From contig NC_092371.1 of NCBI RefSeq assembly GCF_030028105.1, forward strand, positions 212,658,031 through 212,722,030: a stretch of 64,000 bases of DNA, in the 5' to 3' direction. Every line of letters begins with the position of its first letter. The first letter of the stretch is position 1. The DNA is from Mobula birostris. Taxonomy: Eukaryota. The position numbers and the translations under genes are program-made. Shown here piece after piece: positions 10,701 through 51,100 of the stretch. The notes beneath the pieces were generated by a model. The model did not search any database. It saw only the letters and a program-made list of their open reading frames with translations, and had not been told where the DNA came from.

Positions 10701-11123
10701 CTCTGAGGCCTCCGTCGGTCAGAGTCAACCATGGATATTGCATCCCAGCTGTCTAGATACACAAGCCTGGGCAGTACGATAAGGATAGCAAGCTGTTGCC
10801 CATGTAGCAAGCTCACCCTCTCCATGCATCCGATGAACCCAAAGGGCCGGCAGACACCCATACGGTCTGGTACCAGCAGCATCGCAGGGATTGCCAGTCA
10901 GCATTGAGCTCAATGTGGGACTGCCTTAGGGACTCCAGCTCCAGATTTTTCCCTCGGGGTTTACTCCCAAAGCCTTCCCCAGCTGGAGTCCCTAAGGCAG
11001 TCCCACATTGAGCTTGCTACACGGGCAACAGCTTGCTCTCCATATCGTACTGCCCAGGCTGGTGTATCTAGACAGCTGGGATGCAATATCAATAGTCAAC
11101 TCCGACCGATGGAGGCCTCAGAG
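10701..11123. repeat. Nested double inverted repeat (fold-back insertion)
   Basis: 10701-10814 is the reverse complement of 11010-11123 with scattered mismatches. 10907-10940 is the exact reverse complement of 10981-11014. Confidence 0.95.
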
Positions 11124-13050: not shown

Positions 13051-14860
13051 AACTGAGTTCATTCCATATGCTTTTGAATCAATGCCTTAAACTTAAATCG
13101 AATCTTAAATCATGAAATTAAATCCATAGAGGAAAAAAAGCTAATTGTTCCTAGCACCTAACAGGCATTTCAAATAGATACTGTCTATTGCACGTGTCAT
13201 TCTCCAACACAACAATTTGTCATCATTAAATCAATACTTCTAACTTCACTTGATAACAATCAATGTGCGAACAATCCAATATAATTAATTGCCACATCCC
13301 ACACAATGATGCAGTGTGCCTTAATTAGAACCATAGAATACTACAGCACAAAAATAGGCTCTTCAGCCCATCTAGTCCATGCCAAAATGTTGTTTGACAT
13401 AGTCCTATCAATTGTGTCTGGAGCATAGCCCTCCATAACCCTCCCAACCATGTACTTATCTAATCTTCTCGTAACAGTTCTAATTTAATTTGCATCCACC
13501 ACTTCAGCCAGCTTGTTCCAGACATGCACCACCGTCTGAGTGAAGAAGTTCTCCCTCAGGTTCCCTTTAAATATTTCACCATTCATCTTTAAACTATCAC
13601 CTCTCGTTCGAGTCTCACCCAACTTCAGTAGAAAACAATCTGCTTACATTTTCCCTATCTATATCCAGAATTTTGTATACCTCTATCAACTCTACCCTTA
13701 TTTTCCTACACTCCAGGGGATAAAGTCCTAACTATTCAGCTTTTCCCCTCTCACTCAACTCCAGGCACATCCTTGTACATTTTCTCCAAACTCCTTCAAA
13801 CTTACTGAGGTAGATAACCAGAACTGCACACAATAGTCCAAATTTGGCTTCACCAACATCTTATACAACTTCAACATTCCATCCGATTCCTATACCCAGT
13901 ACTCTGATTTACAGAAACCAATGTGCCAAAAGCTCTCTTTACCACCCTATCTGCATGTGACACCACTTTCAAGGAATTATGGGTCTGTTTTCCCAAATCC
14001 CTTTGTTCTACCACACACCTCAGTGCCCAACCATTCTCCATGTCCCGTCTGCATTAAATTCCATCTGCCATTTCTCAGCCCATTTTTCCAGCTGGTTCAG
14101 ATCCCACTGCAAGTTTGATAGCCTTCCTCTTTGTCCACTACACCCCCAATCTTCGTTTCATCTGCAAACTTGCTGAATCAGTTTACTGCATTATCATTCA
14201 AATCATTAATAAACATGACAAATAACAATGGACCAGCACCAGCCTATGGCACACCCAGAGTCACAGGCCTCCAGTCAGAGAGGCAACCATCTACTGGCAC
14301 TCTCTGGCTCCTCAGCATTTCCTTCATTGTTGTAGCAGCTGGCCGGCGGTTCAGAGGAGAGGCCATTGGACGCGCCGTCAGGCCGCGCAAGGAGGCGGAT
14401 TGGAGGAGCCGACGTGAGTGCAGACCTTACTGCTGCCTGTCATTTGAAGGCACCAGAGTTGGTGTGCAAAGGTGGCATGCAGTGAAATAGTGAGTGGCTG
14501 TCTGTCGTGGACATTCCTTTTGCGATCGCAAGACCCTGTTGGATATTGATTGCCACGGCCTGTTTTCCTTGTTTGGTAGTGAAATGTAGTGTGGCTTCTG
14601 TGCCCAGTCGGGGGTGGTCTCGCCTGCCAGTGCTGCCCTCCTCTGTTGGATTGGTGGAATTACAGACTGGACTATTCGCAACCATCAATTTGTGGGACTT
14701 GTTGCTCAGGGTCTTGGATTAAAAATGTGTATCCTTGTGTGACTAAGTTCTTTTTCTCTTTTTTGTTATTTTGAATGCGTGTGTACGTTTATGCACCTTG
14801 GCCCCAGAGGGACGCTGTCTCGTTTAACTGTATCAATGTATGGTTTGAATGATGATTAAA

Positions 14861-15199
14861 TCACAGACAAGAGAAAATCTGCAGATGCTGGAAATCCAAG
14901 CAATACACACACACAAATGCTGGAGGAACTCAGCAGGCCAGGCAGCATCTATGGAAAAGAGTACAGTCGATGGTTCAAGTCGAAACCCTTCGGCAGAACT
15001 GGAGGAAAAAAGCTGAGGGGTAGGGTTGGGGTTGGGGTTAGGGGTTAGGGGTTGGGGGTTGGAGGTTGGGGAGTAGGAGTAAATCTGCTCCTCAGCTTTT
15101 TCCTCCAGTTCTGCTGAAGGGTTTCAGCCTGAAATGTCGACTGCACTTTTTTTCCATAGATGCTGCCTGGCCTGCGAGTTCCTCCAGCATTTTGTGCGC
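14861..15199. mobile_element. Fold-back (hairpin) element, copy 1, with hammerhead-like motif and G-rich spacer
   Basis: Inverted arms at about 14912-15017 and 15090-15196. Flanking direct repeat TTTGAATGAT(G/A)ATTAAA at 14844-14860 and 15200-15216. Confidence 0.9.
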
Positions 15200-15667
15200 T
15201 TTGAATGATAATTAAACTTGATTTGATTGATTTGACTTCCTGGAAAATTCCACAAGATTGGTCAGACACAGCCTGCCTCCCACAAAGCCATGTTGACTAT
15301 CCCTAATCAGGCTCTGTCTATCCAAATACTTACATATCCGGTCCCTTAGAATACCTTCCAACAACTTCCCCACTTCTGTTTTCAGGTACATTGGCCTATA
15401 ATTTCATGGCTTATTCTTAAGGGTTTTTTGAACAACAGAACAGCATTAGCTATTCTCCAGTTCTCCAGCACCTTACCCATGTCAAGGACTTTTCAGATAG
15501 CTCTGCACTAGCTTTCGACAAGGCCCAAGAGAAACACCTCGTCATGCCCCAAGGACTTATCCACCCTCATTTGCCTAAGAAGCATGTATCTCTTCTTCCA
15601 TATATCATCCATGACCTCACTACTGTTTTACCCTAGCTCTATAGACTTCCTGTCCACCTCCCAAATG

Positions 15668-19599: not shown

Positions 19600-20370
19600 A
19601 CACATGTTCCTGCTTACACCAATGGTACAGAGTTCATAGGGTTGAGAGCTTCAAGTTCCTAGCAGTCACCAAAAGCCTGCCCTACTATGATAACATAAGT
19701 CAAGAAAGTTTACCAGCACCTCTACTTCCTCAGGAGGCATGTCTCCTTTGACCCTCACCAATTCTTATCGATGCACCATAGAAAATATCCTATCCGGACA
19801 CATCAAGGATTGGCATGTCAAGTACTCTGACTATGATGACAGGAAACTGCAGAGAAACATCACAAAAACTAGTCCTGAAGAAGGGCCTTGGTCAGAATCA
19901 TCTATTGTTTATTTCTCTCCAGAGATGCTGCCTGACCTGTAAATTTCTCCAGCATTGTGTACGAGTTACACTAATTTCCAGCACCTGCAGAAACTCTTGT
20001 CTTTTGTGTACTCTTCGTACTGTCTTGGTAAAGTCAAGAACCGCACTCACACCGGGTGTACTCTCTTCTCCCATCTCTAATTGGACAGACTATACAAAAG
20101 CTAAAACCACGCATCACCAGTTTCTGCTTCCCAGTTCTAAGGTGATTGAATGGATCTCTAGTACAGTAAAAAGGACTCATGATTTCACAGTCTACCTTGT
20201 TATGGTCTTTGCATCATATTGTCTACCTGCATTAAACTTTCTCTGTAACACTCTTCTCTGCACTATTACTGTTTTATCTTGAACTAACTCCAGGCACTCA
20301 ATATCTGTATGAATGGTATGAAAGAAGAGTACCTCAGTACGTGACAATAATGAATCAATTCACCAAAATT
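19600..20370 (+). mobile_element. Old Rex1/Babar RT 3' fragment containing a single arm of the hairpin family (about 19870-20008)
   Basis: Encodes LTLTNSYRCTIENILSG. The embedded arm reads AGTCCTGAAGAAGGG...GATGCTGCCTGACCTG...CTCCAGCATT. Confidence 0.7.
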
Positions 20371-22839
20371 TATCTGTTTAATACATCACAGATCATGCCA
20401 GTAAATAGCAATTATCTAATTAAAGGCCTAGCAAAATTCTTCAATAATACTAAACTGAAGCCTACTAATTACAAAAAGTTATCAATTCCTGCCAAGCTGA
20501 AGATTATAGTTGTGGCATCTGTAAAATACAAAAATAAAACTACATGGGATTCCATATTACATTTTCTGCCTCAATGTCTTCTTGCAATTCCACGAAAATG
20601 CGTGCACATACAACTAAGATTTCTTAATATGCTATTGTGAATTTTATCTTTGAAAGTATACAACCTTTTGCCAACCACTCAAGTATATATATTTTCTCTG
20701 TATTTGGCTGTACTTGTCTGGTAAATTGTTGCAGAGCAAGAGTATCACTGAAACCTCCATTCTCAGGCAAACATAGATGCATTTTTCCCGAATGGATTTT
20801 TCACATTAGGAGAGAGAGGCTCATTTACTTTAACCAATGTGCTCCACTCTCTCTTTCTCCAGTTGTACTAGGGCCTTGCAAGTGACATTGAGTTAATCTT
20901 CGCACTCCATTCTGGTTTGATGCACAATCCCAAATACAACACCATCACATCTTCAGTATACACATGAATAAGGACTAACCCATGGATCGGATTACAAAGG
21001 AGAAATTATTGGAAGGATAAACAAAAACGATCAAGCTTTCAAAAATGCTTAAAATTTTGATGTTCATTCTTCCGCAGGATCTCTTGACAAAATCTTTAAT
21101 TTTTGAAAAAGCGATGAGTTAGCCTAACATGTTGAAGCCAAATGTGACTGCAGTGGCCAAAGGTATCTTTGGAATCAGCTGGGGAAGGGAGAGGGAGAGC
21201 AGAGTCAGAGGCTGGGAAGATGTATGTGCAGAGAAGAAAGAGATGATGGTAAGATGGAACCAGCTAGGAGAGGAGGGAAATATATGAAAGGTGAACCAAG
21301 GGAGAAGAATCTCAGGTAGATATTATGTCAAAGTAATACATTTTCTTAGTCTAGACCTGCATAACATTTGAGGTTTCACCATACAGAGATATATATATTT
21401 TGGGCCTAAAATGACAGGTCCATTTCTGTTCATTTGGTAAAACTGACTCCAGATGAACACATCACACATCAGGAACAAATTCAAACCTATCTGTATAGTA
21501 TCTATGTGCTCCCAAACCACCAAGTTTTAGAAGGCTGAATCCTTCCCATCCACAACTGCTCTTTTATCATGCATTGACACATTTGCTTTTGTCACTCATC
21601 CATAACCCCAGGCATAATTGCCATCTTTAAAGTTGGTCTCAAACCCATCTCAAGCTTCCATCCTACCTTTTCTATATCACTGATCTGTATGTGATACATC
21701 CTTGCATAAGCTCCCCAACCAGCTGCACCACCGGTTGCATACCATACTAGTGCTTTATAATTACCTCAAAAATGACCATGCACCCTCTGTTCCACATTAT
21801 TTGGTCTCTTAATCATAACCCTTCTTTGTGTTTGTGGGCATCAACTTCCTTTTGTGCTTCACAATCTTTACATTCACTACCTGCTGGAATATTTCCTCCC
21901 TACATGTTAGGAAGTTAACTGACCCTGACAATTATCAAAAACTAGCTCAGGGGCATTGAGAAAAAGTGTAATCCTAAATGTTCAACAGATCAAAGTACAG
22001 CACACATCCTTTTAGCAATCTCATGATTAAACATTTATATGCTCCTAAATTCTATGTGATTCAAACCAACTCTCTCCGATAAATTGTTTTTGTTTTCACC
22101 AAAAGAGATGGAACAGACATCACAGAAGATTACAGGTAACATCCTGAAATTGTTTAACATTGGATGTTATGGTTTTGGATAAATGTTTTGGAGGTTGCTG
22201 TAAAAATTCCTATTTTGATGACTAAAGTTAATTTTATCATCTATTTGAACTTGAAACATTTCACACCATAAACGCAACATTCCAGCCTGTGTCTTTTCAA
22301 TTCACATTTATTGTCATGTACTTCAAGAAGCAAAATTGTACAAAATATAATTTCATCACATTAACTACATATACAGCCTAGTTGAGATTAATATTACAAG
22401 GTCACACAGCCCCTTATAAAATGTACCTTTATGTAGTAAATTTTAAAAAACAATGCCCCGATTTATTAAATATACCCAGACTTCATGACAAGGCATCTTT
22501 TTCATTATGACACAGACATATTAAAAGTTAGAAGCTAAGTAAGCTCGAGATAGGAAAAGGATACATAATTATGAAAGCAGAGTGGAAAGAAGCTTCATAA
22601 CATATCTCCTGTTACCAGAACAGTCCCATATTTTCATAATAACTTTTGAAATATGCTGTTTCAAAAACAGTATACAGACATAATATTTTTGTTATTAATG
22701 CCAACTCATTTGAATTTTGTTTATTAAAGTTTAGTTTCAAAGATTTCTAACTAGGAAAAAGCTTCACTAATATTATGCCAATTTATAAGTGTCAATCTAC
22801 ATGTTCGGCAGCAGGTAAACAAGCTCGTAACAATCTTCA

Positions 22840-23020
22840 CAAACAAGAGAAAATCTGCAGATGCTGGAAACCCGAACAACACACACAAAATGCTGGAGGA
22901 ACTCAGCAGGCCAGGCAGCATCTATGGAAAAGAGTATAGTCGACATTTCGAAACGTTGATTGTACTTTTTTCCATAGATGCTGCCTGGCCTGCTGAGCTC
23001 CTCCAGCATTTTGTGTGTAT
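22840..23020. mobile_element. Fold-back element, copy 2
   Basis: A near-perfect palindrome centred at about 22950 (both strands give MLEELSRPGSIYGK ORFs). Degenerate 18-bp direct repeat at 22822-22839 and 23021-23038. Confidence 0.9.
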
Positions 23021-23574
23021 AGCTCCTAGCAGTCTTCAGTTGGCATTAATGTCTGGCAGAAATATTACAAATAAATGCAGAAATATTATAGATAAATGCA
23101 AAAATTTGATTCCCAAATATGTACCATTACTAGTTATATTTCAAATCTACAATTTGAAGGACACAAAATCACAAATAAAATCTATAATTTTTCCAATAAC
23201 GTGGCACATGCTCAGTTACATTAAGATTGAAGATCAAAGTAATATTGCATAGTGTTATATTTGTAATTCAAAACAATTAAATTCATTTCTTTAAAAGTTT
23301 TAAAATTGCATATACAAGTTTATTAAATATTGTCATCTTTTTGTGAATTATTCAGAGTAAAGTCTCAGAAATGCTATGCTTATATTCAATTTGTCTGAAG
23401 TAATTCAGATGGTAAGATTGTAGGCAGTAATTTAAAAGACATATTTCTATCTACGTTCATGCATCTATTCCTCACTTACTGTCCAGAATGCAAGGCCCCA
23501 GGTAATTGCTCCCTAGATGAATAATTTCACGTTAGACTTGAAAACACAAATTGTTGTAAATATTCAATACAAAC

Positions 23575-23900
23575 AGCATCTATGAACAGAGAAACAGTTG
23601 ACATTTCAAGTCAATTAGCTTTCACCAGAACTGGAAAAAGTTACAGATAATCAAATTTTAGGAGCGGAATAAACAATAGATCTGTAACAGGGTATAAAGG
23701 AGAAGTGGTGAAATGACAAAGGTGGGGATGATGAAAAGCAAAAACCCTTAAGGGAGCAGGACAAATAATGAAACTAAGGATTGATCTAGAGCTGCTGAGA
23801 AAGAAAATGGAACTATTCTGAAATTGATAACTGGATGTTGGATTCAGAAGTTCAAAAGGTGCCTAGTCAAAAGATGAGTTTGTTCTGAGTTTACATATTC
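23575..23900 (-). mobile_element. Old Penelope-like 3' remnant (GIY-YIG C-terminus and pLTR with hammerhead-like motif)
   Basis: The minus strand at 23895-23820 reads approximately LIF*LGTF*TSESNIQ, compared with a recalled LIFRLGTLQPxGLN motif. About 200 bp later comes CAGTT-CTGGTGA-AAG..CTT-GAAA-TGTC-AACTG. Confidence 0.5.
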
Positions 23901-26900
23901 CCTTTGAAGCAATGTAGTGGACTGAAATCAAAATGGAAGAGGAATGGAAAATTAGTGACAGGTGACTAACCAGAAACTTAAAGAGTCATCATTATATAAT
24001 AGAAATGGATCAAATATTCCAGATCCAAAACGTGTGCCCAAGCTCCCAGTCACTTCTCTTCATTCTTCCTCAATCTTCTCAATGAAGATTAAAAATTAGA
24101 GATGTAGTGCAGAACAAGCCCTCCCAACCCAACCACCTGCGCTGCCCAGCAACCCACCTATTTAACCCTAGCCTAATCACAGGACAATTTATAATGACCA
24201 ATTAACCTACTAACCAATGCTGTACATCACTGGAATGACATACAGTACTTCATCTTCTGAAGAAACAAAATACATCTTTATAACTCAAAATGTTATGTCC
24301 CAACAATTTCAGATGATGATTCAACATATTCTGTCAATCCATTGTATGTTTCAGTTGCTGAACACTGGCCCTTTCGCTTTGCATCATCAATCCATTTGTC
24401 ACTTAATGAGTCCCACCTTCTAACCCACCACAGATCAATTTCTTTCTGCATCATGGTACAACTTACTTCTAACTTTATCCACTTCCAATGCAAGGGAGTT
24501 GACATGAAACACCCAGCTGTTTCTCCTAATGCTGCTGGGCCTAAGGAATGACAACATTTTTGACTTCTTAAATTCCTCAGAGGAGTTTTATTTGTACTAT
24601 AATTCAGGTCACTTTCATCCTTTTTGTTGGTTATCTTTCAAAAGGTGCTAAGACCAAAATCAACTGATCATTATCACAGTTGCACAAAACATCAAAGGCA
24701 ATAGGCTTTTTTTTGGAGAAGCTTACTTTGTGTCACATTCTACATAACCAGCAAATTTCTTTTTACAAATTCTGGAGTTCTACTATGGCTATAGGACAGT
24801 AAAGGCATGCTGTTTGTTTTCACACTCCATTTCTCATGACCAAGAAAAAGTTCAATGCCCATGTACCAGGTATTCAGTTACATGCAGTTGTGGTTCTAAG
24901 TGTTAGGTTTTTAAAATGCTGATTGTAAAGGACCCCAGAACTAAAAAAAACACTATTAGAGTTATGTTTCAATTTAGCCCCGAGCTTGTGTCTTCTCCGC
25001 TTGATATTATACCTGCCAGCTGTGGGATGGGGGGAGGGGGGGGCGGTCAGTGGTGAGGATACATATCTGGAATTGATGAATCTCTAGTTTGATCATTTTA
25101 GTAAGCAAAAGCTAGATCATTCTTCGGAATATGCTTGTGTCCTGAGACAACATCAGGTGGTTGTTGTAACAGACACATAACACAGTTCATTCTTGAAAAT
25201 GCGCTAAAGTACAAGAACATGTTAAATGAAAGGTCTTTAATGCTGTGAGTACACAAGGATATATGACCACCATCTCCCATGTGTGACGTGGGCATTTAAA
25301 ACAAGGAGGCATTTATTTTAAGAATTCACTTATCCATTATTCTATAACCTCAATTTCTAAATAACAATTTTTCCCCTGCTGCTAATTTGCACAAGCAAAG
25401 CAGAAACCATTCCTGAAGCTGAAAACAGTGCAAAAACAGAAATTAAATTTAATTTTATAAAACTAAAATTACAAACTAAAGTTTAATTGCAGTGCAATTT
25501 ATATAATTTGTATATTTGATATTTTTTAAAAATCACATGTAAAAATAGCAAGTTTCCTAGAAAATCATACTTTTAAATGTTCTGATGGATGGACTAATAA
25601 TTATTACACAGATGAGGGAACCTGTATTCCTCTCGTGTTATAGTTGGAGACAATGAAAAAAGGCATGCATTTTCGGATTGATCTTTGTAATTTCTAAGAA
25701 TCCATGAATTGAAAATAAATTGTCAACAGGAAATATAGATTTTTAGAAGCAAATAGTTTGAAGGGAGTTAATTGATTTTGTTTGTAAAATTTTGTTCTTC
25801 ATTCTACGTGCTTTCTCATACTAAACAAACCAAAGTTGTTTTGTTTGGATTTAGCTTGGCTAGTACAGAATGCATTTTTTAAATTATAATTGCTCAAGAC
25901 CTTTATCAATTTAATTTGCTTTGAATCTATTGATAAGATATGATGCACCTTCTAAACGTTCAAGGTTACAGCAAAAATACTGATTGCAAAGTGTGTTAAG
26001 ACTGTGTTTGTCGTAAGTAAGCCAAGTAGTCTGTACATTTTCTATGAGCAATAAAATAGCACCAAGTTCAAAACTCCACTTTGCTAGAGCAATTCGATCT
26101 TCAACAAAAATCAAATACAAAGAACTGTGGTTTGATACCTTCTCATTTAAACACAAGTTGGGATTATCCAAAGTTATGCAGAGCAGAGGACAAGAACCTC
26201 ATTATCAAATTAACTCATTAAATACATTAACCACAGAAGATTTTACCCATGGTGGAAAAAAAAATGTGCAGAAGGCATGAACCTTGTCAAAGAATAAATT
26301 ATTCCTGATTTAAAACATTACAATCCTAGGGAAGTTGGAACAAATATGTGGAGCTAGATCACAGATGATCACTGAAAAGACTCAAGATACTAAATGGCAC
26401 CCTCTGTCCTTAGATTTTACTGAAAAATCAGTTGTGTTCATTATCTGACAAAATATGGGCATCAAATGTAACCCTATTTTAACAATACCTCTGATTATAA
26501 GCTTGAGTGTTAGAAATTCAAACCACTGTATTAAAGAATGGCAAACATTACAGCTACAAACATAATAGAAAACTAACGAATAAGAAACGTTAGCCAAGAT
26601 ATTTTGCTTAATTTCCAGTTAAATACCATGCATTTTACAAAACCTATTTACATTTCAGCCATTCTCTTTCACTACAGTATACAACCTTGAAGTGATTAAT
26701 GCCCAAAATAAGGTTAGGTGAAGAGATGTCCAGACATTATTTGTTGGACCATCAAACTCTCAGTGTGGTCCTTACAAGGACAATGCAACTGTTATGGACA
26801 AAAATAATATTGTATGTTTGAAAGACCCTCACGTTCCAGTATCTGGACAGGAACAGGAATGATAAGATATTTAGAGATTTTACTTAAACTGGCTAAATCT

Positions 26901-32310: not shown

Positions 32311-33462
32311 ACATCAAGCAGGCGGGGGTAGAAAACTTGCACAGCATGCTTGCCTTCATCAGTCAGAGCACTAAGTATACATGTTGGGAAGTCATGTTGC
32401 AGTTGCAGTTGTTTAAAATGTTGGTTAGCCACATTCTGAGTTTCACTGACACGACAAAAAGGATGTAGTCACTTTGGAGAATGTGAAGAGGTTGTGTGAA
32501 TTGAAATGGATTAAATAAAAGGAGGGTTTGGACAAATTGCTCCCTTTCAAGCAAAGGCTGAGAGACAACCTACTAGAAATGTGTAAACTTAAGAATAGAT
32601 AAGGCAGGTAATTTTCTGTGGTTATGATAAATGGCTTGAAGCTGAACACAATTTCAGATTACTTGTATCATGCAGGAATTTGGAAAAACAAATAAACTTT
32701 TATTGAATATAATGTGTTTAATTGCATAATGGTGCTGATGCTTTGCAAAAGTTCAACTAAGCTAAATATATTTTGTTGATGACTTTCATTTGGACTCAAG
32801 TGTCTGAGGCTTCTCGCATAAGTGTCCAACAATAATCAGGCAGCATTGATGGATTCCATGAATACAACGTCCAGGTGAGACCTTTCACCATGCTCGTCAT
32901 TGGCAGCGCCAAGATTTGCAGGGAAGTAGTCTCAATGGGAATGCAGAAAATGAATCTTCAGAGACATGTTGCACTTCATAGTTTTGTATGCTTGAAGCAT
33001 GTTGTCAACCAGCTGCACAGAGCTTGGTGCTCTGTAGTTGCCAAGAAAATTTTCAGTAGCATCTTTGAATGCCTTCCTTGTGACTTTCTCCAGTCTCACT
33101 AGAAGTTCATTGAATTGCCTGTCATTGATGACCTGTTTGATTTGTGGATCAACAAAAATGTCTTCCTCAAACTTGGTATCAGTTATTGTAGGAAATATCT
33201 GTCTCAAATATCGAAATCCTTCATCTTCCTTGTCCATCTCTTTCACAAGAAATTTCATAAGCCTCAGTTTTATGTTAAGAAGAGGCAAAAATATCTTTGG
33301 TTTTATAAGTGGCTTATGTGCTACATTTTTCTGCCCTGGAACCAACTGCTTATGGAGTGGTCAATTGTTTTTAATTTAATGAGATCCTTTAGCATGGCTG
33401 TCCAATCTGCAAATGAATCAATCAGCACTTGGTGTATCTGAGCTGTATTCCTAGTAGTAGCA

Positions 33463-33666
33463 AATCGTAAACACAAAATAATCTGCAGATGCTGTGGTCA
33501 AAGCAACACTCACAACACGCTGGAGGAACTCAGCAGGTCGGGCAGCATCTGTGGAAAAGATCGGTCCACGTTTCGGTCCTGACAAAGGGTTCCGGCCTGA
33601 AACGTCAACCGATCTTTTCCATGGATGCTGCCCGACCTGCTGAGTTCCTCCAGCGTGCTGTGAGTG
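33463..33666. mobile_element. Fold-back element, copy 3, nested in the Chapaev-like transposon
   Basis: Inverted arms at about 33506-33575 and 33599-33668. Exact 15-bp TSD TTCCTAGTAGTAGCA (33448-33462, 33667-33681). Confidence 0.92.
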
Positions 33667-34499
33667 TTCCTAGTAGTAGCACTTCTACTTTCAGATCACC
33701 ACAGATGTTCCAATTGTAGTTGCTGTACTGTATGCATTTCTACAAGACTTCCAACTTTCAGTAGTTTTCTTTCATCTGTACTGCACAGTCGATTGGCATT
33801 GAAAGGCAGACATTGCTGTTGTGTAGCAGCTCAGCTTTCAGGCTTAACATTGAAGAATCAATAAAAGATACCATTCTCGCGGGTCATGCTGCCAACCCAA
33901 AGCAATCAAAAGCCCATTATGTCAATGCAGAAACACAGATCATCAACCTGACCAGAGAATTATGTCAAATCTTCTTGTCAGCTGTGAAAGACGGATATTT
34001 TCGTGTCTGGTGACAGCAGGTTCCATCCTTGCAGTCTTGAACCCAGTAATTCTGCTTTTGCCTTTGACAAACCCAAATCTCCGATCAGGTCATTTAACTC
34101 AAATTGAGTTATCAGATGAGGCCCATTCAACATGAAGGGTTCAAAATCTATATCATTATCAATGTCGTTTCCCATTCCTGGCTCGTGCATCACAGCATCT
34201 TCGTCTGCATACTCTAGACTCCATGTCTCTGGTGGCTTTGATACTGGAAGACTATTGTCATGGCTGAAGGAAGATTAGGGTATTTGATCTTTTTTTTAAA
34301 ATTTTTTTTAAACGCAGAAACCAGACACACTGGTCAGACAGAAGTAGCAGTCCGTCACATGATCCTTCTGCTCTCCCCATATTATCGGGACAGCAAACTG
34401 CATTGAGTTCCGAGTACCTCTGAGCCAAGCTCTAAGATCGACAGCACATATTGTGTAACAAACGTGAGGACCTCAGGCTTTATCTTGGTCGCCAATTTC

Positions 34500-34772
34500 A
34501 GAATCAGATTTAATATCACCAGCATATGTCATGAAATCATTAACTATGCAGCAACAGTATAATGCAATATATGAAAAATATAGGAAAAAACTAAATTACA
34601 GTTAAAATAGGTAGTGTAAAGATCAAAATAAAAAAAGTGAGGCAGTGTTCATAGGTTCAATGTCCATTTAGAAATTGGAAGCCAGTAGGGAAGAAGCTGT
34701 TCCTGAATTGTTGAATGTGTGCCTTCAGACTTAAGTACCTCCTTCCTAACGGTAACAATGAGAAGAGGGTAC
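34500..34772 (-). mobile_element. Rex1/Babar-type 3' end nested in the Chapaev-like transposase
   Basis: A (TCTGAT)n tail at about 34500. The transposase reading frame is interrupted here and resumes on both sides. Confidence 0.7.
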
Positions 34773-35056
34773 TTTACCCCCAAGTAGAGCTCACACGCAT
34801 TCTTAATAAGAGGAGTCATGCTCCAACTTTGAGATTTAAGCGTATACTCACCACAAATATAACAGAAAGTTTCGTGACTGTTGCAACATTGGCAAGACAT
34901 TTGTCTATCACCAGTAACTCCGAAAACACAATTACTTTAATATAATGAGTACACGCAATATACCATGCACATAGAGCATGCACATCAACTTGATCACAAA
35001 CTGATATACTCTACATGTAAATGCAATGTACAGACAGTGTGTGCATGATATTTTAT

Positions 35057-40490: not shown

Positions 40491-41124
40491 CATTTTATTT
40501 CCTGAACCAACAAATCTCAATTTAGTTATTCAGAGAACCTTAAGTATTTAATATTGATCATATTTTACAGGTTGGTTTTAAAATGTTTTCTCATACTAAA
40601 GAGGTCTTAATGAAACACCATCCTAACTTTATACATGCACTAATCCACATTTAAATTATTTAACAATTCTACACAAACTGGGAATGTAACTGCATTTATT
40701 ATTCCTGCAGATCACCTGTCAGGAAACTGCAAGCATGCATTGGGCAATTTTCCAAATGTCTAAATGAATGAATAGAAAATTAAGTAGACAAGTTGTGCAC
40801 CCTGGATTGCATTCAGAGTCCTGTAACACATGCAATGCCCATTTATGGAATTGCCTTTTTTAAATACTGTATACTGTCCTGGTCTCTGACCAGTTCAACA
40901 ATTACTAAACCATCTGGGGCTTGAGATACAAAGCAAAACATCCTCTCATCAACAGGCCGAACATCTTTGAGACACTCCGCACGTGCTGATGTATGGACCC
41001 GACTACCAACTAAATGTGACATTTTTCAAGAGTGCCAAGGAAAGGAATATAATGAAATTTAGTTTGTGCATAAAATGTAAATTTTTCAACTGACTATTCA
41101 TGTAACTCAGTTGTCACAGGATAG

Positions 41125-41297
41125 CAAACAACAGGAATTCTGCAGATGTTGGAAATTCAAGCAACACACATCAAAATTGCTGGTGAACGCAGGAGGCCAG
41201 GCAGCATCTCTTGGAAGAGGTACAGTCGACGTCTCAGGCCGAGACCCTTCTGCCCTATGCTGCCTGGCCTGCTGCGTTCACCAGCAACTTTGATGTG
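41125..41297. mobile_element. Fold-back element, copy 4 (divergent subfamily)
   Basis: Arms ACACATCAAAATTGCTGGTGAACGCAG...GCAGCAT and ATGCTGCC...GCGTTCACCAGCAACTTTGATGTGT. Exact 13-bp TSD TGTCACAGGATAG (41112-41124, 41298-41310). Confidence 0.9.
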
Positions 41298-41581
41298 TGT
41301 CACAGGATAGGTTTTGTTGCCTTATTTTGAAGTTACTCAACTCCAGTCTGAGCACATCAAAAAATGTAGGATTGCAACACACCTCCATTTCAGATTGGAC
41401 TATTGTCTGGGGAGTATTATGGTGGCAGTGATGATGCAAACCTGTTCATATTGTTCAGAGTTGGCAGCTTTGGAAAAGAGCCAAGCCACAAAGTATTTAA
41501 AAGTTATAACACTTAAAAAAAAATCTTTTCAATAAACTGATTAGCTTAGCATTTCTACAATAAAAGTCTGAAAACAATATA

Positions 41582-42068
41582 TACTCAGTGGCCACTTTAT
41601 TAGGTACATCTACTCATTAATGCAAATATCTAATCAGCCAGTCATGTGGTAGCAACTCAATGCACAAAAGAATGCAGACATGGTCCAGAAGAGTTAGCTG
41701 TTGTTCACCAGAATGGAGAAAAAAAAATGTGATTGACTTAAACTGTAGAATGCTTGTTGTGCCAGACCAGGTGGTTTGAGTAGCTCTGCAGATCTGGGAT
41801 TTTGAGAATGGTGCCAAAAAAAAAAAAAAAAAAAAAAAAAAGCAATGCACAGTTCTGTGTGTAAAAATGCCTTATTAATGAGAGGTCAGGGAGAACGGCC
41901 AGACCTGGTTCAAGCCGACAGGAAAGCAACAGTAACTCACGTGACCACGTTACAGTTGTGGCATGCAGAAAAGCATCTCTGAATGCACAACACACTAAAC
42001 TTTGGAGTGGATGGACTACAGAAGATCACAAGCATACCTCCTGCACCTAATAAAGTGGCCACTGAGTG
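41582..42068. mobile_element. Tc1/mariner non-autonomous element
   Basis: TIRs ACTCAGTGGCCACTTTATTAGGT / ACCTAATAAAGTGGCCACTGAGT flanked by TA. An internal poly(A) run lies at 41816-41841. Confidence 0.88.
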
Positions 42069-43308
42069 TATCTTTAAAGTAGTCACCAAGTGTAAACCAT
42101 ACATCAGTACAGTGCTGAAACAGGCCTCTCGATCTTATAACACTTTCAGGTCTCCCCTCAGCCTCCACTATCTCAAAGAAAACAACCTGTTTGTCCAGCC
42201 TCACCTTTTAGCCCATGCCCTCTAATCAAGGCATCATCATAGTAAACAACCTCTACACCCTCTCCAAAGCCTCATCATTCTTATTATGTGACTAGAACTG
42301 AAAATATCACTAATAATAGTGGAATGGAGCTACAATGTCTGTAAGACTGGTTATCACACAATCTTCATTTTGTTTGATCACCACATGAAGAATGAAGTGT
42401 AGATTACAGTCCTACTTGTGAGATGGATATTCTCAATATCTCAAATGGTGTCAAAGCATTGAGAAATACTTACACTTTCACACACTTCATTATCAAAGTT
42501 TGTATTTTGCAATGTCACATGGAATCTATTGTAGGAAGCCTTTAAGTTCTTTAGCTAAGTGTGCAAAATAGTCGTGTAGGTAAGAATGCACTGTAGACAT
42601 TTGAGTAACAAATACTTTCAGAAGGGTAAAACCTCAAGGGATAACATTCCTCCTTAAATTATACAATTCTACTTGAATCCTTTGTAATGACACAATTGTA
42701 GTAATCAAAGAGCCATTACTTGGTTAAATGACTTTTAATGTTTTAGATATTCAATAATGGTCAAAAATTCAGGTTTTTGGATACAGTGAGGTGTACAAAT
42801 GTTATTTCCTTATAACTCAATAGAACACATTAAGCATAGTTTGCATTTTAAACAACCAATAAACACTTGAAATCAAAATGGTTCAATATTATGATAAAAA
42901 TTGGAACCCAAACTTGGGTCCATAACAAGTCAATTCAAGTGCAATCAAAACCTTACACCAAAAACTATTTTTCCCCATTACGTACTCACTACATGCATTT
43001 ATGTACCCATTTTGCTTTGTACTAGTGACCAAGCATTTCTTCCGCTGGGGGCTTTCAAACTAGAATTGTAAAGTTAATTTGATTAATCATTTTCCATTGT
43101 TCTACAAGTATCCAGTGTCAAAGAAGCATTAATTTATTCTTTGTCTTCCCAAAGTTGGTCTTCAATAATATGTAGCAAATGGTGGCAAATGATAAAGAAC
43201 CTGAATCCAATTTTTCCTTCCTAGTTAATTCCCAAGTATATTGAAGTTTAACAATTTTAAGACAACATCGCTCCTTGTTCCTGTACTATTTAGTTTAAGT
43301 TTGTACAT

Positions 43309-43485
43309 TACAAATGTTGGCTGGTAATTGAAACAGATTCCAATTGTATTGACTTATCAACACTAGAGTGTTCTGCTTTAGTCTGTGCCTCCAAGTCAGG
43401 ATTTATAATAACAATCTTCCATTTCTCCTGATAGTTTCATTTTCCACAGCAAAAGCAGCAACAGGCAGTGATGATTCCACACAAT
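43309..43485 (-). pseudogene. Degenerate tandem duplicate (pseudo-exon) of the cysteine-string exon plus the start of the downstream intron
   Basis: Aligns by eye with 43877-44077. Reads [14 protein letters not shown] (a 1-nt deletion creates TGA), has further small deletions, and the donor GTAAGT is mutated to ATAAGT. Confidence 0.9.
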
Positions 43486-43925
43486 GATTTGATACAACAC
43501 CACAGAGCAGAATTTAACAAACTATTTTTGCAACATCTTTTTCACTTTGTCATAAAATCTTGGTAAAATGAATTACAGCTCACTTATGGCAATGTCAAAC
43601 ACAACTTGACCATTTCAACTTTTCACACCAGCACATGAAAATGCAAAATGAATAAACTGAATCTTCCATCAAGCTTCAGAATAAAATCAGTTCACAATTA
43701 ACAAAGCAGAACACATTGTTGTAGCATTCCAAAGACTAAAGCTGCACAACTGCAACTATTTTAGTGACAATTTCAGAATTTAGTTATACAGGATGGAAAA
43801 TCTTCTGAATAAAGCCTTTTACTCAATTTCAAAAGTGTATTTTCCACTATAAATCTCAACTAGTGAAATTAAAGTTTACACATTTTGGCTGGTAATTGAA
43901 ACAGATTCCATTTGTATTGACTTAC

Positions 43926-44088
43926 CATCTTCACTAGTGTGTTCTGCTTTAATCTGTGCCTCCAAGTCATCAGGATTTATAATATCATAATCTTCCATTT
44001 CTCCTGATGGTTTGCATTTTCCACAACAAAAGCAGCAACAACAACAACAGCAGCACCCAGTGATGACTCCACAGAATACAACTAGAGC
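43926..44088 (-). CDS. DNAJC5G: DNAJC5G-like coding exon 3 (cysteine string)
   Basis: Acceptor ttgcag|GCT. Encodes [54 protein letters not shown](G), 163 nt. Donor G|GTAAGT. Confidence 0.95.
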
Positions 44089-46003
44089 CTGCAACGTAAA
44101 GAAGATTAATATGCAAGGGAATAGTTTTCTATACTCATTAAGCAAGAATATGCACAGAGCAGCCTTTAAAAATTACTACCAGAGTCTTATTTTAAACCCA
44201 CAAAATCTTCTGCAATCAGTGAGCTTCTCAGACCAAATATCGTCCATGCCATGTCATTAGATATCAAGATGTAGTTAAAATTCACATAAGGTGGTCATAT
44301 TTGAATTAAGATGGTAAAGTTTACAGTTGAACGCTAATCGAAGCATTCCAATTTTTTCTAAAAATAACCAAAATGAAATTGCTTGTATGAAAATAGAATG
44401 TTTAAACTGAACTTTCAAAAAAGGAAATTGTCAGCACCCAGAATTCATAGTATTAGCAGCATTTGAAAATCCAAGCCAGAAAGAAACTTTTGCCATTGTT
44501 TACAGACTCACAGTTAAAAAGTTTTAAGATATGTTCTATAAAAAGTTGATACACAAGGCAGAAAAAGCTGGAAGTACTCAGTTTAGAGTGCATTGCTGAG
44601 TAAAGCTGAGTCAATCTTTCAGGTCACAGATGTGAGCTGATCTGCTGATTAAATGCAGCATTTCCTCCTTTTCGTTTTAAATTTTCAGTGTCTGCAGTTT
44701 AAGTTCAGATTGCTTTTTCCAAAGACATATATACATGTTGATAAATGATACTTTACTATAGATTAATATGTTGTTAGAATGTTGAAAAGATGACTATTTT
44801 CTCTACTCAGCTCAATCCGTTTCACATTTTCTATACTCTAATCAACTCTAATATCTTTAGCTAACACCTATCCTACTGTACATTTTCTTAAACTTTTTGG
44901 TATTATTGTAGAAACTATAGGCAAGACAGTTGAGAACTCGCAATTCCCATTACATTCTTCAAAACAAAACATCCTTAGAAAATACAACGTACATCATACA
45001 GACTGAGAGCACAACGAGAGTAGTGGTGGTCCTATCACTTACATTCCATGATTCAGCATACATCACTTGTTAGACCACAACTTAAGAGCTGTACTCAGTT
45101 CAGCTCACTATATTTGTGACTGTCTGAGAGGGGATGAGAGGAGTTTCACTCTGCAAATTCCAGGTCTCTCTTAATGGAATTTGCAGGAATGAGGGATCAT
45201 AGTTATTAGGTTAGCCTGGAAAGGCTGGGGTTGTTCTCTTTGAAGCAGTGCTGAGAGGAGATTTGATAGATTACAGTGATAAAATTGAGGAGAGCTGTTC
45301 CTAAAAGACCCAGGACTGCAGGTGGACAAAAATGGTGGACAAAATATGTGAGGAGTATGTAAGTAAATACATTTTACTCAGCAGTAATGATCTAGAAGGC
45401 AATGATTTTGGAAACAAAGTTGATCAATGACTACCCTTGGGAAGATGGGGATTTACTATTTTGTCAAGAGTCATGGATAATGGAGGTCAGATATCATCTT
45501 CAATCCATTCTTATTCCTCCCTCTTCTGGCCCCTTCCCAAAGTGCTCTTCTTTTATTTTCCCTGCACTCTTACTGCTCCAACAACTACTATTAATTTTCA
45601 GAAAAAGTAAAAGCCTGAAGTCAAAGGAGGAGGGAAGAGCAATGCAAGTGTAGCAATGGAGAAAGATGAAAATGGCAAATAAGATAGGAATCAGTAAATT
45701 CAAAGCTAATGACAATAATTAAAAAGGCCAGTAATAACTATACCACCATCCACATTAAGAGGCAGAGGCAAATCAGCTTGAGCTAGGCCTGACACTAAAC
45801 CACAAAGGACAGGTGTCCATCGGTGTATAAAACTAGTGAATACCCTTAAAATTGGGTGGAAACTTTCCAGATCAGAGTTAGAAACATAGCAGAGGGTCAG
45901 GAAGTGGAAGGAATGATGGAAGAAAAAAAACTGGGTGACTTCAAGTAAAGAGAAATAAAATCCATAAGCACTATAGATTAAGTTTCCACTAAACATAACC
46001 TAC

Positions 46004-46217
46004 CTTAAACCAACACTTGTTCATCAGAAAGTAGTATTTGACACTCTCTTCTCCAAACTGTTCAGCCACATATAGTCCCATTGAGCCATACTCATCGTAG
46101 ATGCGTTTCTTATTTTCATCATTCAGAATTGCATTTGCATTGTTTATTTCTTTAAACTTTTCTGATGCATCAGGGTTGTCTGGATTTTTGTCTGGATGAT
46201 ACTTGAGTGCAAGCTTT
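46004..46217 (-). CDS. DNAJC5G: DNAJC5G-like coding exon 2 (J-domain with HPD motif, linker)
   Basis: Acceptor caattag|A. Encodes [71 protein letters not shown], 214 nt. Donor AAG|GTAGGT. Confidence 0.95.
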
Positions 46218-47564
46218 CTAATTGGAAAACAAAAGTAACAAACTTCAGAACTACAATCTGGGTACAAATAATGCTGTATCTAGAGCTAATTAAAAATTTA
46301 AAATTAAACTAATCTCCTTCAATCAAATTAAACTATTACCAGGAACACCAGTGCTAATTTTTAACAATGTTTTTATCATAGTAGGAAGAGACAAGATTTC
46401 AAGAAAATACAGGTGGTTTCTGGATTTCCATTTCAACTTTTGTCATATGCTGCAAACCTTAAAAAACATCTCATTAGTTACCCAAATGTGTGCAAATTTA
46501 ACTGCAGCAATTGCAAAACCAGTTATTCTACTATTGAGTGAACTATTGGCCCTTTCCAGAGGTGTTTCAATGAAGCTTAAAAAATATTGCTCGTCACAAT
46601 GTCAGTGCTCAGCCAGCACAAACATCCTTATAAGTAGAAATGCACACCAAGGTGACCTGCAGTTCATTTAGCATGCCCAGCCTAAACTCCTGTAGCAGCA
46701 TGCTTTATGTGCAACGTTAAACACTGCTGGACTCCCATCACTGCAGAACTGGGTGCTCTACACAGCCTGATACAGAAATATTTCAGATGCTGAGTGCACA
46801 GGCAGCAACCATGCAGCATGTACCTGTTGTTTCATGAAATCTGGTTTCACCTCCATTGATCCATTGAAAGATCTCCTCATGTAGTACTGACAATCTCTCT
46901 ACATTTGTAAGACAGCAGTAAATATGTCAAGATGGCAATAAGCTGGAATGTGACGTTTGATTCTTAACCTGTCATGCAATAGCTAGCTCAGTTCAGTCAC
47001 AGAAGCAATGATGCAATGACTGTCCTATACCTGCCAGTGGCTGAAACTATTAAACCTGGGTTTCTAAACACATTGCAGTACTTGTGAAAATTGCACAAAT
47101 CCCCAGTGTGCCAACAATAGTCAGCCTAGGACAAGACCAGACAAAATGAGAGCAGAAGAGTCAGATACAGAAGGATCTGGGAATGAGACAGAGCTTGAGG
47201 GATAAGAATAGAAGGTGGCACACAGAAGAGCTCAATAACACCACAGACAGCTGTAACATGTGCAAACGAAAGGGGATACCACACAAGTACAGGGTACGTT
47301 CAGCAAAGGATGAAGTGAAAGTGAAGAATCGGTGAAAGAAATATCCAAAGTGGAAGAAAGCATGTGAGTAAAAGAGAAACATATGGGGATAGAAGGAAGA
47401 GTGTTTGGTGCACTTGCTTTGACTGCAATCTGTATGTAAAACCAGCTTACAAAGTAGCCAGGAGATCAATTGGGTTGTGAAATCTGAACATAAACTGTAG
47501 AAGCTGGAAATCTAAAAAAGGAATTGCTTGAAACACTCAGCAGACAGACAGCTTTTGTGGAATG

Positions 47565-48052
47565 AAGACCATAAGATATTGGAGCAGACTTAGGCCATTT
47601 GGCTCATTGAGTCTGCTCTACCATTTCATCACAGCTGATCCATTTTCCTTATCAGCCCCAACCTCCTGCCTTCCCTCCTGTATCCATGCCCTGACCAATC
47701 AACAATCTATTAACCTCCGCCTTAAATATACATATAGATTTGGTTTCCACAGGTGTCTGTGGCAATGAATTCCACAGATTCACCACTCTCTAGCTAAAGA
47801 AATTCCTCTTTATCTCCGTTCTAAAAGGACGCCCCTCTATCTTAAGGCTGTGTCCTCTGGTCTTATAGACTCCCCCACCACTGGAAACATCCACTCCACA
47901 TCCACTCTATAGAGGCCTTTCAACATTCAATAGGTTTCTTCATTCTTCTGAGTTCCAGTGAGTAGAGCCCCAGAGACATCCAACGCTCCTTATATGACAA
48001 GGCTTTCAATCCCAGAATCATTTTCGTGAACCTCCTTTGAACCACCTCCAAT
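47565..48052 (-). mobile_element. CR1 3' fragment
   Basis: AAGACCATAAGATATTGGAGCAG end; closely similar to 1975-2445. Confidence 0.85.
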
Positions 48053-48182
48053 ATATCAAACCCAAGAAAGAAAACTAGTTATTTTTAAACGAAGAATATG
48101 GAAGAACAATGAACAGAAACAAGAGGAACCTTTCTTTTATGGCAAGGCCAGGATTGTCTTTGGGATAAGTTGTAAAGCTCAC

Positions 48183-51100
48183 CCCATATAACCATATTAC
48201 AATTACAGCACGGAAACAGGCCATCTCGGCCCTTCTAGTCCGTGCTGAACGCTTACTCTCACCTAGTCTGATCTACCTGCACTCAGCCCACAACTCTCCA
48301 TTCCTTTCCTGTCCATATACCTATCCAATTTTTTTTTAAAATGACAAAATCTAACCTGCCTCTACCACTTCTACTGGAAGCTCGTTCCACAAAGCTACCA
48401 CTCTCTGAGTAAAGAAGTTCCCCCTAAACTTTTGCCCCTTAATCTCAACTCATGTCCTCTTGTTTGAATCTCCCCTACTCTCAATGGAAAAAGCCTATCC
48501 ACATCAACTCTATCTACCCGCCTAATTTTAAATACCTCTATTAAGTCCCCCCTCAACCTTCTACGCTCCAAAGAATAAAGACCTAACTTGTTCAACCTTT
48601 CTCTGTAACTTAGGTGCTGAAACCCAGGTAACATTCTAGTAAATCTTCTCTGTACTCTCTATTTTGTTGACATCTTTCCTATAATTTGGTGACCAGAACT
48701 GTACACAATACTCCAAATTTGGCCTCACCAATGTCTTCTACAATTTTAACACTATATCCCAACTCCTGTACTCAATGCTCTGATTTATAGAAACATAGAA
48801 AATAGGTGCAGGAGTAGGTCATTCGGCTCTTCGAGCCTGCACCGCCATTCAGTATGATCATGGCTAATCATCCAACTTAGAACCCTGTACCTGCTTTCTC
48901 TCCATACCCCCTGATCCTTTCAGCCACAAGGGCCATACCTAACTCAGTCTTAAAGGCCAGCATACCAAAAGCTTTCTTCACCACTCTATCCATATGAGAT
49001 TCCACCTTCAGGGAACTATGCACCATTACTCCTAGATCACTCTGTTATACTGCATTCCTCAATGCCCTACCATTTACCATGCATGTTCCATTTTGATTAG
49101 TCCTACCAAAATGTAGCTCCTCACACTTAACAGCATTAAACTTCATCTCCCATCTTTCAGCCCATTCTTCTAACTGGCCCAAATCTCTCTACAAGCTTTG
49201 AAAACCTACTTCATTTTCCATAATACCACCTATCTTAGTATCATCTGCATACTTACTAATCCAATTTACCACTCCATCATCCAGATCATTAATGTATATG
49301 ACAAGCAACATTGGACCCAGTACAGATCCCTGAGGCACACCACTAGTCACCGGTCTCCAACCTAACACACAGTTATCCACCACTACTCTCTGGCATCTCC
49401 CATCCAGCCACTGTTGAATCCATTTACTACTTCAATATTAATACCTAATGATTGAACCTTCCTAACTAACCTTCCATGTGGAACCTCGTCAAAGGCCTTA
49501 CTGAAATCCATATAGACAACATCCACCCCTTTACCCTCGTCAATTGTCCTAGTAATCTCTTCAAAAAATTCAATAAGATTTGTCAAACATGACCTTCCAC
49601 GCACAAATCCATGTTGACTGTTCCTAATCAGACCCTGTCTATCCAGATAATTATATATACCACCTCTAAGAATACTTTCCATTAATTTACCCACCACTGA
49701 CGTCAAACTTACAGGCCAATAATTGCTAGGTTTACTTTTAGAACCCTTTTTAAACAATGGAACAACATGAGCAGTACGCCAATCCTCCTGCACCATCCCT
49801 GCTTCTAATGACATTTGAAATATTTCTGTCAGAGCCCCTGCTATTTCTACACTAACTTCCCTCAAGATCCTAGGGAATATCCTGTCAGGACCCGGAGACC
49901 TATCCACTTTTATATTCCTTAAAAGCGCCAGTACTTCCTCTTCTTTAATCGTCATACTTTCCATAACTACCCTTCTTGTTTCCTTTACCTTACACAATTC
50001 AATATCCTTCTCCTTAGTGAATACTGAAGAAAAGAAATTGCTCAACATCTCCCCCATCTCTTTTGGCTCCACACATAGCTGTCCACTCTGATTCTCTTAG
50101 GGACCAACTTTATCCCTCACTATCCTTTTGCTATTAATAACTGTAGAAACCCTTGGGATTTATTTTCACCTTACTTGCCAAAGCAACCTCATATCTTCTT
50201 TTAGCTTTTCTAATTTCTTTAAGATTCTTTTTACATTCTTTATATTCCTCGAGCACCTCATTTACTCCAAGCTGCCTGTATTTATTGTAGATCTCTTTCT
50301 TTTTCAGAACCAAGTTTCCAATATCCCTTGCAAACCATGGCTCTCTCAAACTTCTAACCTTTCCTTTCAACCTAACAGGAACATAAAGATTCTGTACCCT
50401 CAAAATTTCACCTTTAAATGACCTCCACTTCTCTATTACATCCTTCCCATAAAACAAATTGTCCCAATCCACTCCTCCTAAATCCTTTCACATCTCCTCA
50501 AAGTTAGCCTTTCTCTAATCAAAAATCTCAACCCTGGGTCCAGTCCTATTCTTCTCCATAATTATATTGAAACTAATGGCATTGTGATCACTGGACCCGA
50601 AGTGCTCTGCAACACATACCCCCGTCACCTGACTTATCTCATTCCCTAACAGGAGATCTAACACTGCCCCTTCTCTAGTTGGTACCTCTATGTATTGCTG
50701 CAAAAAACTATCCTGCACACATTTTACAAACTCCAAACCATCCAGCCCTTTTACAGAATGTGCTTCCCCATCTATGTATGGAAAATTAATCTCCCACAAT
50801 CACAACCTTGTGCTTACTACAAATATCGCTATCTCCTTATAAATTTGCTCCTCCAATTCTCGCTCCCCATTAGGTGGTCTATAATACACCCCAATAAGCA
50901 TTACTGCACCTTTCCCATTCCTCAATTCCACCCAAATAGCCTCCCTAGATGAGCCCTCTAATCTATCCTGCCAAAGCACCACTGTAATATTTTCTCTGAC
51001 AAGCAATGCAACACCTCCCCCTCTTGCCCCTCCAATTCTATCACACCTGAAGCAACGATATCCAGGAATATTTAGTTGCCAATGACACCCCTCCTGCAAC

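Follow-up and report, generated by a model that had tools for sequence, protein, structure and literature searches.

A hairpin insertion with a decayed minimal hammerhead motif in the ray Mobula birostris, probably a truncated product of a Penelope-like retrotransposon

A hairpin of about 200 bp in the genome of Mobula birostris, bounded by a short direct repeat and carrying a hammerhead-like motif, raises the question of whether such hairpins form a retroelement family that spreads by itself or are by-products of a larger element. The earlier note on this DNA had argued for the former, proposing a non-autonomous, ribozyme-bearing family derived from Penelope pLTRs, and had singled it out as the best candidate for an under-described system. 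We analysed the hairpin within the 64,000-nucleotide stretch that contains it (the window; contig NC_092371.1, positions 212,658,031 to 212,722,030), together with contigs of related animals and with published descriptions, cited here from the accessible parts of the papers.

Insertion site and geometry of the hairpin

The insertion lies between two identical copies of TTCCTAGTAGTAGCA (33448..33462 and 33667..33681, + strand), which cannot be extended and are the only two in the window when both strands are counted; the chance of a 15-mer match of this kind, with placement allowed to vary by ±5 nt at each end, is about 1.5e-7. Since the leading TT of the repeat is also the end of the family, and in the right copy is common to the element end, the true length of the target site duplication (TSD) is 13-15 bp. 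Empty sites were found in contigs of the host repeat, which pass from the left flank into one single copy of the 15-mer. The joint 33421→33667 was present in two contigs of run X1 and four of run X5, and of two contigs in run X13 one linked 33417 to 33667 across 26 flank-like letters and the other linked 33455 to 33687 across 11 letters. As paralogous host-repeat sites carry the 15-mer once, the duplication arose upon insertion, and the claim of a hairpin insertion of about 200 bp with a 15-bp TSD is borne out.

The host repeat interrupted by the hairpin (32932..34936, − strand) contains broken transposase-like ORFs, and its flanks are matched by many contigs about 85% alike. These ORFs gave no Pfam match; the Atlas features of the repeat weakly resemble clusters with RAG1 zinc-binding families in 14-19% of their members, and its transposase may be Chapaev3-like. 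The hairpin is flanked by the exons of two minus-strand genes, one with a DnaJ domain (53.3-43.9 kb) and one of the RING/B-box (TRIM) type (from 12.7 kb). Several other features of the window are separate from it. A near-perfect inverted repeat at 10701-11123, with 115-nt arms 91% alike and an inner 34 nt at 100%, is unrelated and likely a MITE-type repeat (against mir-3199 it scored 48.7 bits, under the gathering score of 100). A LINE remnant at 49383-52421 (− strand) has RVT_1 and Exo_endo_phos domains and is not Penelope-like, and neither a 262-nt direct repeat (4879-5140/5618-5879, 92%) nor a 95-nt inverted pair (34649-34743/37515-37609, 82%) is related to the arm.

The hairpin arms, 33502-33582 and 33591-33671, are complementary over 81 nt at 89%, with a minimum free energy of −142.6 kcal/mol (z −18.7) that none of 200 shuffles equalled. 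The insertion and TSD stood as they had been described, with the correction that the two arms are unequal: the left one has about 39 extra nucleotides (33463..33501, − strand) that are absent from the right one. This tail, an extension of the element end found on the inverted arm only, aligns with extensions at 14861, 22840, 41125 and 19.9 kb and is missing from all four short arms of the window's hairpins. The long, inverted arm (33463..33576, − strand) accordingly consists of the element end plus the tail, is 5′-truncated within the 3′ strand of hammerhead stem II and is without the CUGANGA box; the short, direct arm (33572..33668, + strand) is the element end without the tail and starts one base ahead of stem I. 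The two meet head to head at a 5-nt microhomology, TTCGG (33572..33576), common to both arms; the match of family contigs starts at 33572, their loose ends upstream of it being C/T-rich, and the left arm tracks the family to 33576. A search for an ADAR-like one-strand A-to-G pattern between the arms found no A-to-G run, the six differences over 72 nt including two clearly of CpG type.

The hammerhead motif and its decay

The short arm contains, at 33573..33612 (+ strand), the string TCGGTC-CTGACAA-AGGGTTCCGGCCT-GAAA-CGTC-AACCGA, exactly as had been read before. Its parts, all on the + strand, are stem I (33573-78/33607-12), the core (33579-85, with G8 changed to A at 33584), an extra A between positions 9 and 10.1 (33586), stem II (33587-90/33595-98, with C11.1 changed to U at 33598), the GAAA box (33599-602), a palindromic ACGU (33602-605) and a predicted cut after C33606, followed by a base changed from G1.1 to A (33607). 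A minimal hammerhead (min-HHR) descriptor written for this analysis from the features given in PMC4209133, with one core mismatch allowed, had its sole window match here, and 30 dinucleotide shuffles gave one match in total. The proposed check against type I hammerhead models was therefore positive with our own descriptor and negative with the Rfam hammerhead families, which gave no match up to E 10 in the whole window or in 33555-33630; Rfam matches were limited to hairpin-type miRNA models, under the gathering score.

The letters typical of the family were taken from contigs of related animals matched at 80% likeness, by summed depth, in runs X1, X5, X13 and X16. G accounted for 61%, 62%, 47% and 98% of the summed depth at 33584 in these runs, respectively, and for 80%, 86%, 44% and 79% at 33607, and is thus the majority at both positions in three of the four runs, X13 being the exception. 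Hence the family core reads CUGACGA...GUC-G in those three runs, and the two deviations that the earlier note had named are indeed of CpG type. Its count was incomplete, a third CpG-type change having been overlooked at T33598, where the conserved G10.1-C11.1 pair has become G-U; the C is retained in the other arm and in the loose ends of the contigs. In all, three bases of the copy are changed, with A in place of G8 and of G1.1 and U in place of C11.1.

At the family level the motif has the CUGANGA and GAAA boxes with C3-G8, a point on which the copy at 33573-33612 itself fails (A8), together with the extra nucleotide 9/10.1, the G10.1-C11.1 pair (C11.1 being U in the right arm), the palindromic 15.2-16.2 and no helix III, all of them features of the min-HHRs of Penelope-like elements (PLEs; PMC4209133). 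With these core features present in the family, the arm can be said to bear a minimal type I hammerhead of the Penelope pLTR kind, in decayed form. It differs from the published motifs in its helix II, which has 3-4 bp here versus 7-8 bp in Schistosoma, and in the three changes of the ray copy (PMC4209133). In three arms of two subfamilies, CTGCNGA or GCAGA replaces CTGANGA (14961-15003, − strand; 15105-15147, + strand; 41245-41254, − strand), which is possibly a subfamily-level variant (A6 to C in the core) or a loss.

Contigs of X1 and X5 match 33572-33625 in one piece and continue upstream into C/T-rich sequence, and stem I thus has a 5′ strand that belongs to the element itself and is not a mere echo of the fold-back. 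Most family contigs have A at 33575 and T after 33609, so that the local subfamily, which is rare in runs X14 and X15, has G-C in place of one A-U pair of stem I. Over the five window copies that extend into the motif, 82.9% of the stem cells are paired, with one A-U to G-C change; as 85 and 401 of 500 shuffles, respectively, equalled these values, the covariation of the stems is not significant.

The C3-A8 mismatch is expected to disable the hammerhead core, C3-G8 being an established pair and G8C having been tried in PMC11167929 with a result that points the same way. Moreover, min-HHRs require a second motif on one RNA (PMC4209133), dimer cleavage of minimal hammerheads being cited in PMC6765202, and the second arm of the hairpin, antisense and without CUGANGA, provides no same-strand partner. 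When the right arm is folded alone, the hammerhead stems are predicted to form at 0.85-0.99; in the 206-nt context, predicted stem I pair probabilities are about 1e-12 and the active fold carries a predicted penalty of 19.8 kcal/mol, the 81-bp hairpin being predicted to bury the motif. Given the three CpG changes, the missing dimer partner and the predicted sequestration, the hammerhead in this copy is very likely inactive. It is a passenger of the pLTR.

Sister hairpins, Penelope affinity and the question of self-propagation

An arm profile built from eight window arms gave 12 arm-like matches in the window, which make up four hairpins (14.9, 22.8, 33.5 and 41.1 kb) together with four pieces that stand alone. 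The hairpin at 14844..15216 belongs to a second subfamily, with a 17-bp TSD containing one mismatch and a junction upstream of the hammerhead. That at 22822..23038, of the same subfamily, has a degenerate TSD (15/18, 3 mismatches), a junction at the TTTCGAAA palindrome (22946-53) and CUGANGA on neither arm. The third, at 41112..41310, represents a third subfamily, with an exact 13-bp TSD and a short arm that starts downstream of the hammerhead. The TSDs of the hairpins are therefore variable (13-18 bp; three clear and one degenerate, n = 4), and two of the four hairpins have a complete hammerhead on neither arm. A solo arm with tail, of an older subfamily (19866..20008, + strand), starts near the front of stem I, and a TSD sought there was not found. 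The loop of the 14.9-kb hairpin contains G-rich GGGGTT/GGGGTTA-like units (15027-15075) with the look of a degenerate telomeric repeat, which may be a microsatellite expansion of the C-rich upstream sequence of the element.

Membership among the PLEs is suggested by the structure and by the ribozyme motif. Insertions of EN+ PLEs consist of an inverted 5′-truncated copy, a one-sided tail of 30-40 bp and a TSD of 8-10 bp (PMC3846280, PMC8557442, PMC8969392), and the ray hairpins resemble those of Pen2a_Av and others in the head-to-head truncated copy, the overlap or palindrome at the junction, the 30-40-bp tail at one end and the enclosing TSD; they differ in that both copies are about 100 nt long and without an ORF, and in their TSDs of 13-18 instead of 8-10 bp (PMC3846280, PMC8557442). 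The autonomous element with RT and GIY-YIG domains that was expected to end in the same arm did not come to light, as no RT or GIY-YIG ORF linked to the arm was present within the 64-kb window and protein searches with the arm translations gave none. Two of these searches returned one match each, among 11 and 20 candidates, both being exonised arm fragments in ray gene models, and a search of representative proteins returned only three unrelated repeat proteins. The arm translations match gene models of Hemitrygon akajei and M. birostris; two ray models, P0002 and P0006 (a CBFA2T1 isoform and an LRRC43-like isoform), terminate in translated arm plus tail, through either exonisation or an annotation artefact. 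An older arm (23574-23634) has, about 250 nt upstream at 23887 (− strand; 23813-24092), a decayed stretch that by eye looks like the C-terminus of the Neptune endonuclease in Fig. S2 of PMC8557442. It agrees at 6 of 11 motif positions, which is chance level (three such matches in the window versus 4.8 in shuffles, with positions chosen after the match was seen); Pfam matched neither of two proteins, a protein database search gave no candidates, and this endonuclease-like stretch is a lead only. Arm pattern scans gave no loci in viral contigs, metagenome contigs or prokaryotic genomes, and blastn of plasmids gave none.

The arms are extremely abundant, with 40,846-50,457 contigs per DNA run matching a 651-bp stretch and the depth concentrated on the arms. 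Within a hairpin the two arms are of the same subfamily, and the four hairpins represent three: the left and right arms at 33.5 kb differ at 6 of 68 positions, as against 12-25 differences to other arms, and those at 41.1 kb at 4 of 43, as against 10-15. Each of the four hairpins has a junction of its own, none being held in common. In X1 and X5 the summed depth was 97-533 on the junction side (33556-33570) and 46,700-71,900 in the subfamily-specific part of the arm (33610-33621), so that the junction has a depth of about 1% of the arm value or below, bearing in mind that contig depth is not equal to copy number. Among the contigs listed, one of X1 and three of X5 spanned a similar junction with 7-11 differing letters; these few contigs make it possible that a small group has undergone limited re-amplification or that the junction is a hot spot.

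Two other accounts of the hairpins have to be weighed against these data. If they were DNA-transposon MITEs or foldback elements with an incidental hammerhead likeness, the long inverted repeats would be explained, and a transposase-like remnant does enclose this copy, but that remnant is the interrupted host repeat, with empty sites of its own; the inverted repeat stops short of one end, owing to the 39-nt one-sided extension, the TSDs vary from 13 to 18 bp, solo arms exist and the motif fits a min-HHR descriptor that shuffles rarely satisfy. We regard this account as hardly credible, in agreement with the earlier note, which had preferred a retroelement-type insertion to a MITE. The account that the note itself advanced, in which the hairpin unit is a non-autonomous ribozyme-bearing retroelement transcribed and re-inserted whole by Penelope proteins, has in its favour that every hairpin has its own TSD, that the four contigs mentioned above cross a similar junction and that non-autonomous pLTR derivatives exist, namely the retrozymes (bioRxiv 10.64898/2026.07.22.740005) and the putative non-autonomous Chlamys. 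It is nevertheless quite improbable in view of the unshared junctions and three subfamilies, the low junction depth, the two hairpins without a complete hammerhead and the predicted burial of the motif. In animals, the non-autonomous pLTR derivatives described so far are tandem retrozymes; these non-LTR retrozymes are likewise non-coding and pLTR-related, have a type I hammerhead and are known in one chondrichthyan genome, but their direct tandem arrays permit dimer cleavage, whereas in the ray unit the two copies are inverted and the one motif is broken (bioRxiv 10.64898/2026.07.22.740005). Identity with a retrozyme was rejected, the arms being inverted, the nearest other copy lying more than 7 kb off and no direct neighbour copy occurring within 7 kb. 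The data fit de novo formation of the hairpin with every insertion. The feature is genuinely inserted DNA of 204 bp, two short ends of the element placed head to head between the TSD copies, and it is probably a dead, one-off and heavily 5′-truncated product of an abundant Penelope-like retrotransposon, not a self-spreading unit.

The locus is therefore real and ordinary, and the claim of an under-described system is not supported, the layout of an inverted truncated pLTR with tail and TSD being already in print, as is the minimal hammerhead: PLE min-HHRs were described in 2014 as solo motifs or as opposite-strand pairs 100-700 bp apart, left by truncated PLEs (PMC4209133). Cartilaginous fishes are not named in the accessible part of PMC4209133, and shark and skate names and arm strings had no matches in the searchable supplements of PMC4209133 and PMC8557442. 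The ray arm family was not found in the literature searched, also by short arm strings, and that literature yielded no hairpin PLE families.

A possible route of insertion

With arm ends set from the TSD positions and nine arms aligned on a common anchor, the long arms end 82-88 nt past the anchor (5/5) and the short arms 40-44 nt past it (4/4), the long ends thus lying about 42 nt beyond the short ones. Each of the four hairpins combines one long and one short arm, and in each an inverted 5′-truncated copy is adjacent, head to head. By contrast with these fixed ends, the 5′ ends are scattered, the nearest lying 2 nt and the farthest at least 82 nt ahead of the anchor. In eight of the nine arms the sequence reaches past the predicted cut site in the 5′ direction, and no arm starts right there, which points to uncleaved templates. 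Two arms start at the front edge of stem I (33572; 19866-19871), the other starts being mostly within or near the hammerhead motif. The tail-bearing arm is on the left on the + strand in all four hairpins (14861, 22840, 33463, 41125), with a chance p of about 0.125.

The biochemistry of PAc, the Poseidon element of Anolis (Frangieh et al. 2024, PMC11167929), offers a parallel: PAc cuts and extends both target strands while its RNA template is uncleaved, its tail spans the interval from one RT start site to the other, and hammerhead cleavage is dispensable for insertion in vitro. The steps that we propose for the ray are alike in the two start sites that would bound the tail and in the cutting and extension of both strands on uncleaved RNA. 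They are unlike in that PAc had no strand difference in start site in vitro, as described in PMC11167929, whereas the ray hairpins are long plus short in four of four. Under an independent 50:50 choice this pairing has p of about 0.06, which with n = 4 makes it a hint only.

From the geometry of these four hairpins we infer priming at both ends of the target. The GIY-YIG/RT protein of the element would make a staggered cut, 13-15 nt apart, and both target 3′ ends would prime reverse transcription on uncleaved element RNA, the right end at the inner start site, giving the short arm, and the left end about 40 nt further 3′, giving the long arm with its tail. Synthesis would come to a halt within the hammerhead or adjoining it, leaving cDNAs of about 97 and 114 nt, lengths that are seen in the structure, and the two cDNA ends would then anneal through the 5-nt TTCGG/CCGAA microhomology and be filled in to yield the hairpin and its TSD. 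It is possible, and we propose it tentatively, that such stubs generally record a coordinated two-ended integration, in which a Penelope dimer primes both ends of a 13-18-nt stagger on uncleaved RNA, always using the inner and the tail sites, stalls at the folded hammerhead and leaves the ends to be joined by microhomology.

A Penelope origin could also be kept with a different final step, the hairpin forming by self-priming (fold-back) at the junction microhomology and the tail being gained or lost when the structure is resolved. A model of this kind, with an antisense template, has been proposed for Adineta Penelopes (PMC3846280), and the 5-nt microhomology at 33572-76, the palindromic junction at 22946-53 and the constant origin of both arms of a hairpin from one subfamily agree with it. 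The junction at 41 kb, however, has no such symmetry, and PAc extends both target strands in vitro (PMC11167929). Furthermore, a first-strand cDNA made from the short end would be without the tail and could not give the 39 extra nucleotides, so that fold-back is hard to reconcile with a tail on the copied arm alone. We consider self-priming unlikely and retain two-ended priming as our tentative reading.

The locus itself, a decayed repeat within another repeat, matters little. A self-propagating hairpin family, were it true, would add a novel type to the non-autonomous derivatives of PLEs, and the present evidence is against it. The interest lies in the class, as the regular pairing of a long with a short end and the microhomologies at the junctions have a bearing on the end step of PLE integration and on the origin of inverted pLTRs. 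If coordinated two-ended integration is true, it would supersede self-priming, the published explanation of inverted pLTRs, and the tens of thousands of ray copies could serve as its test.
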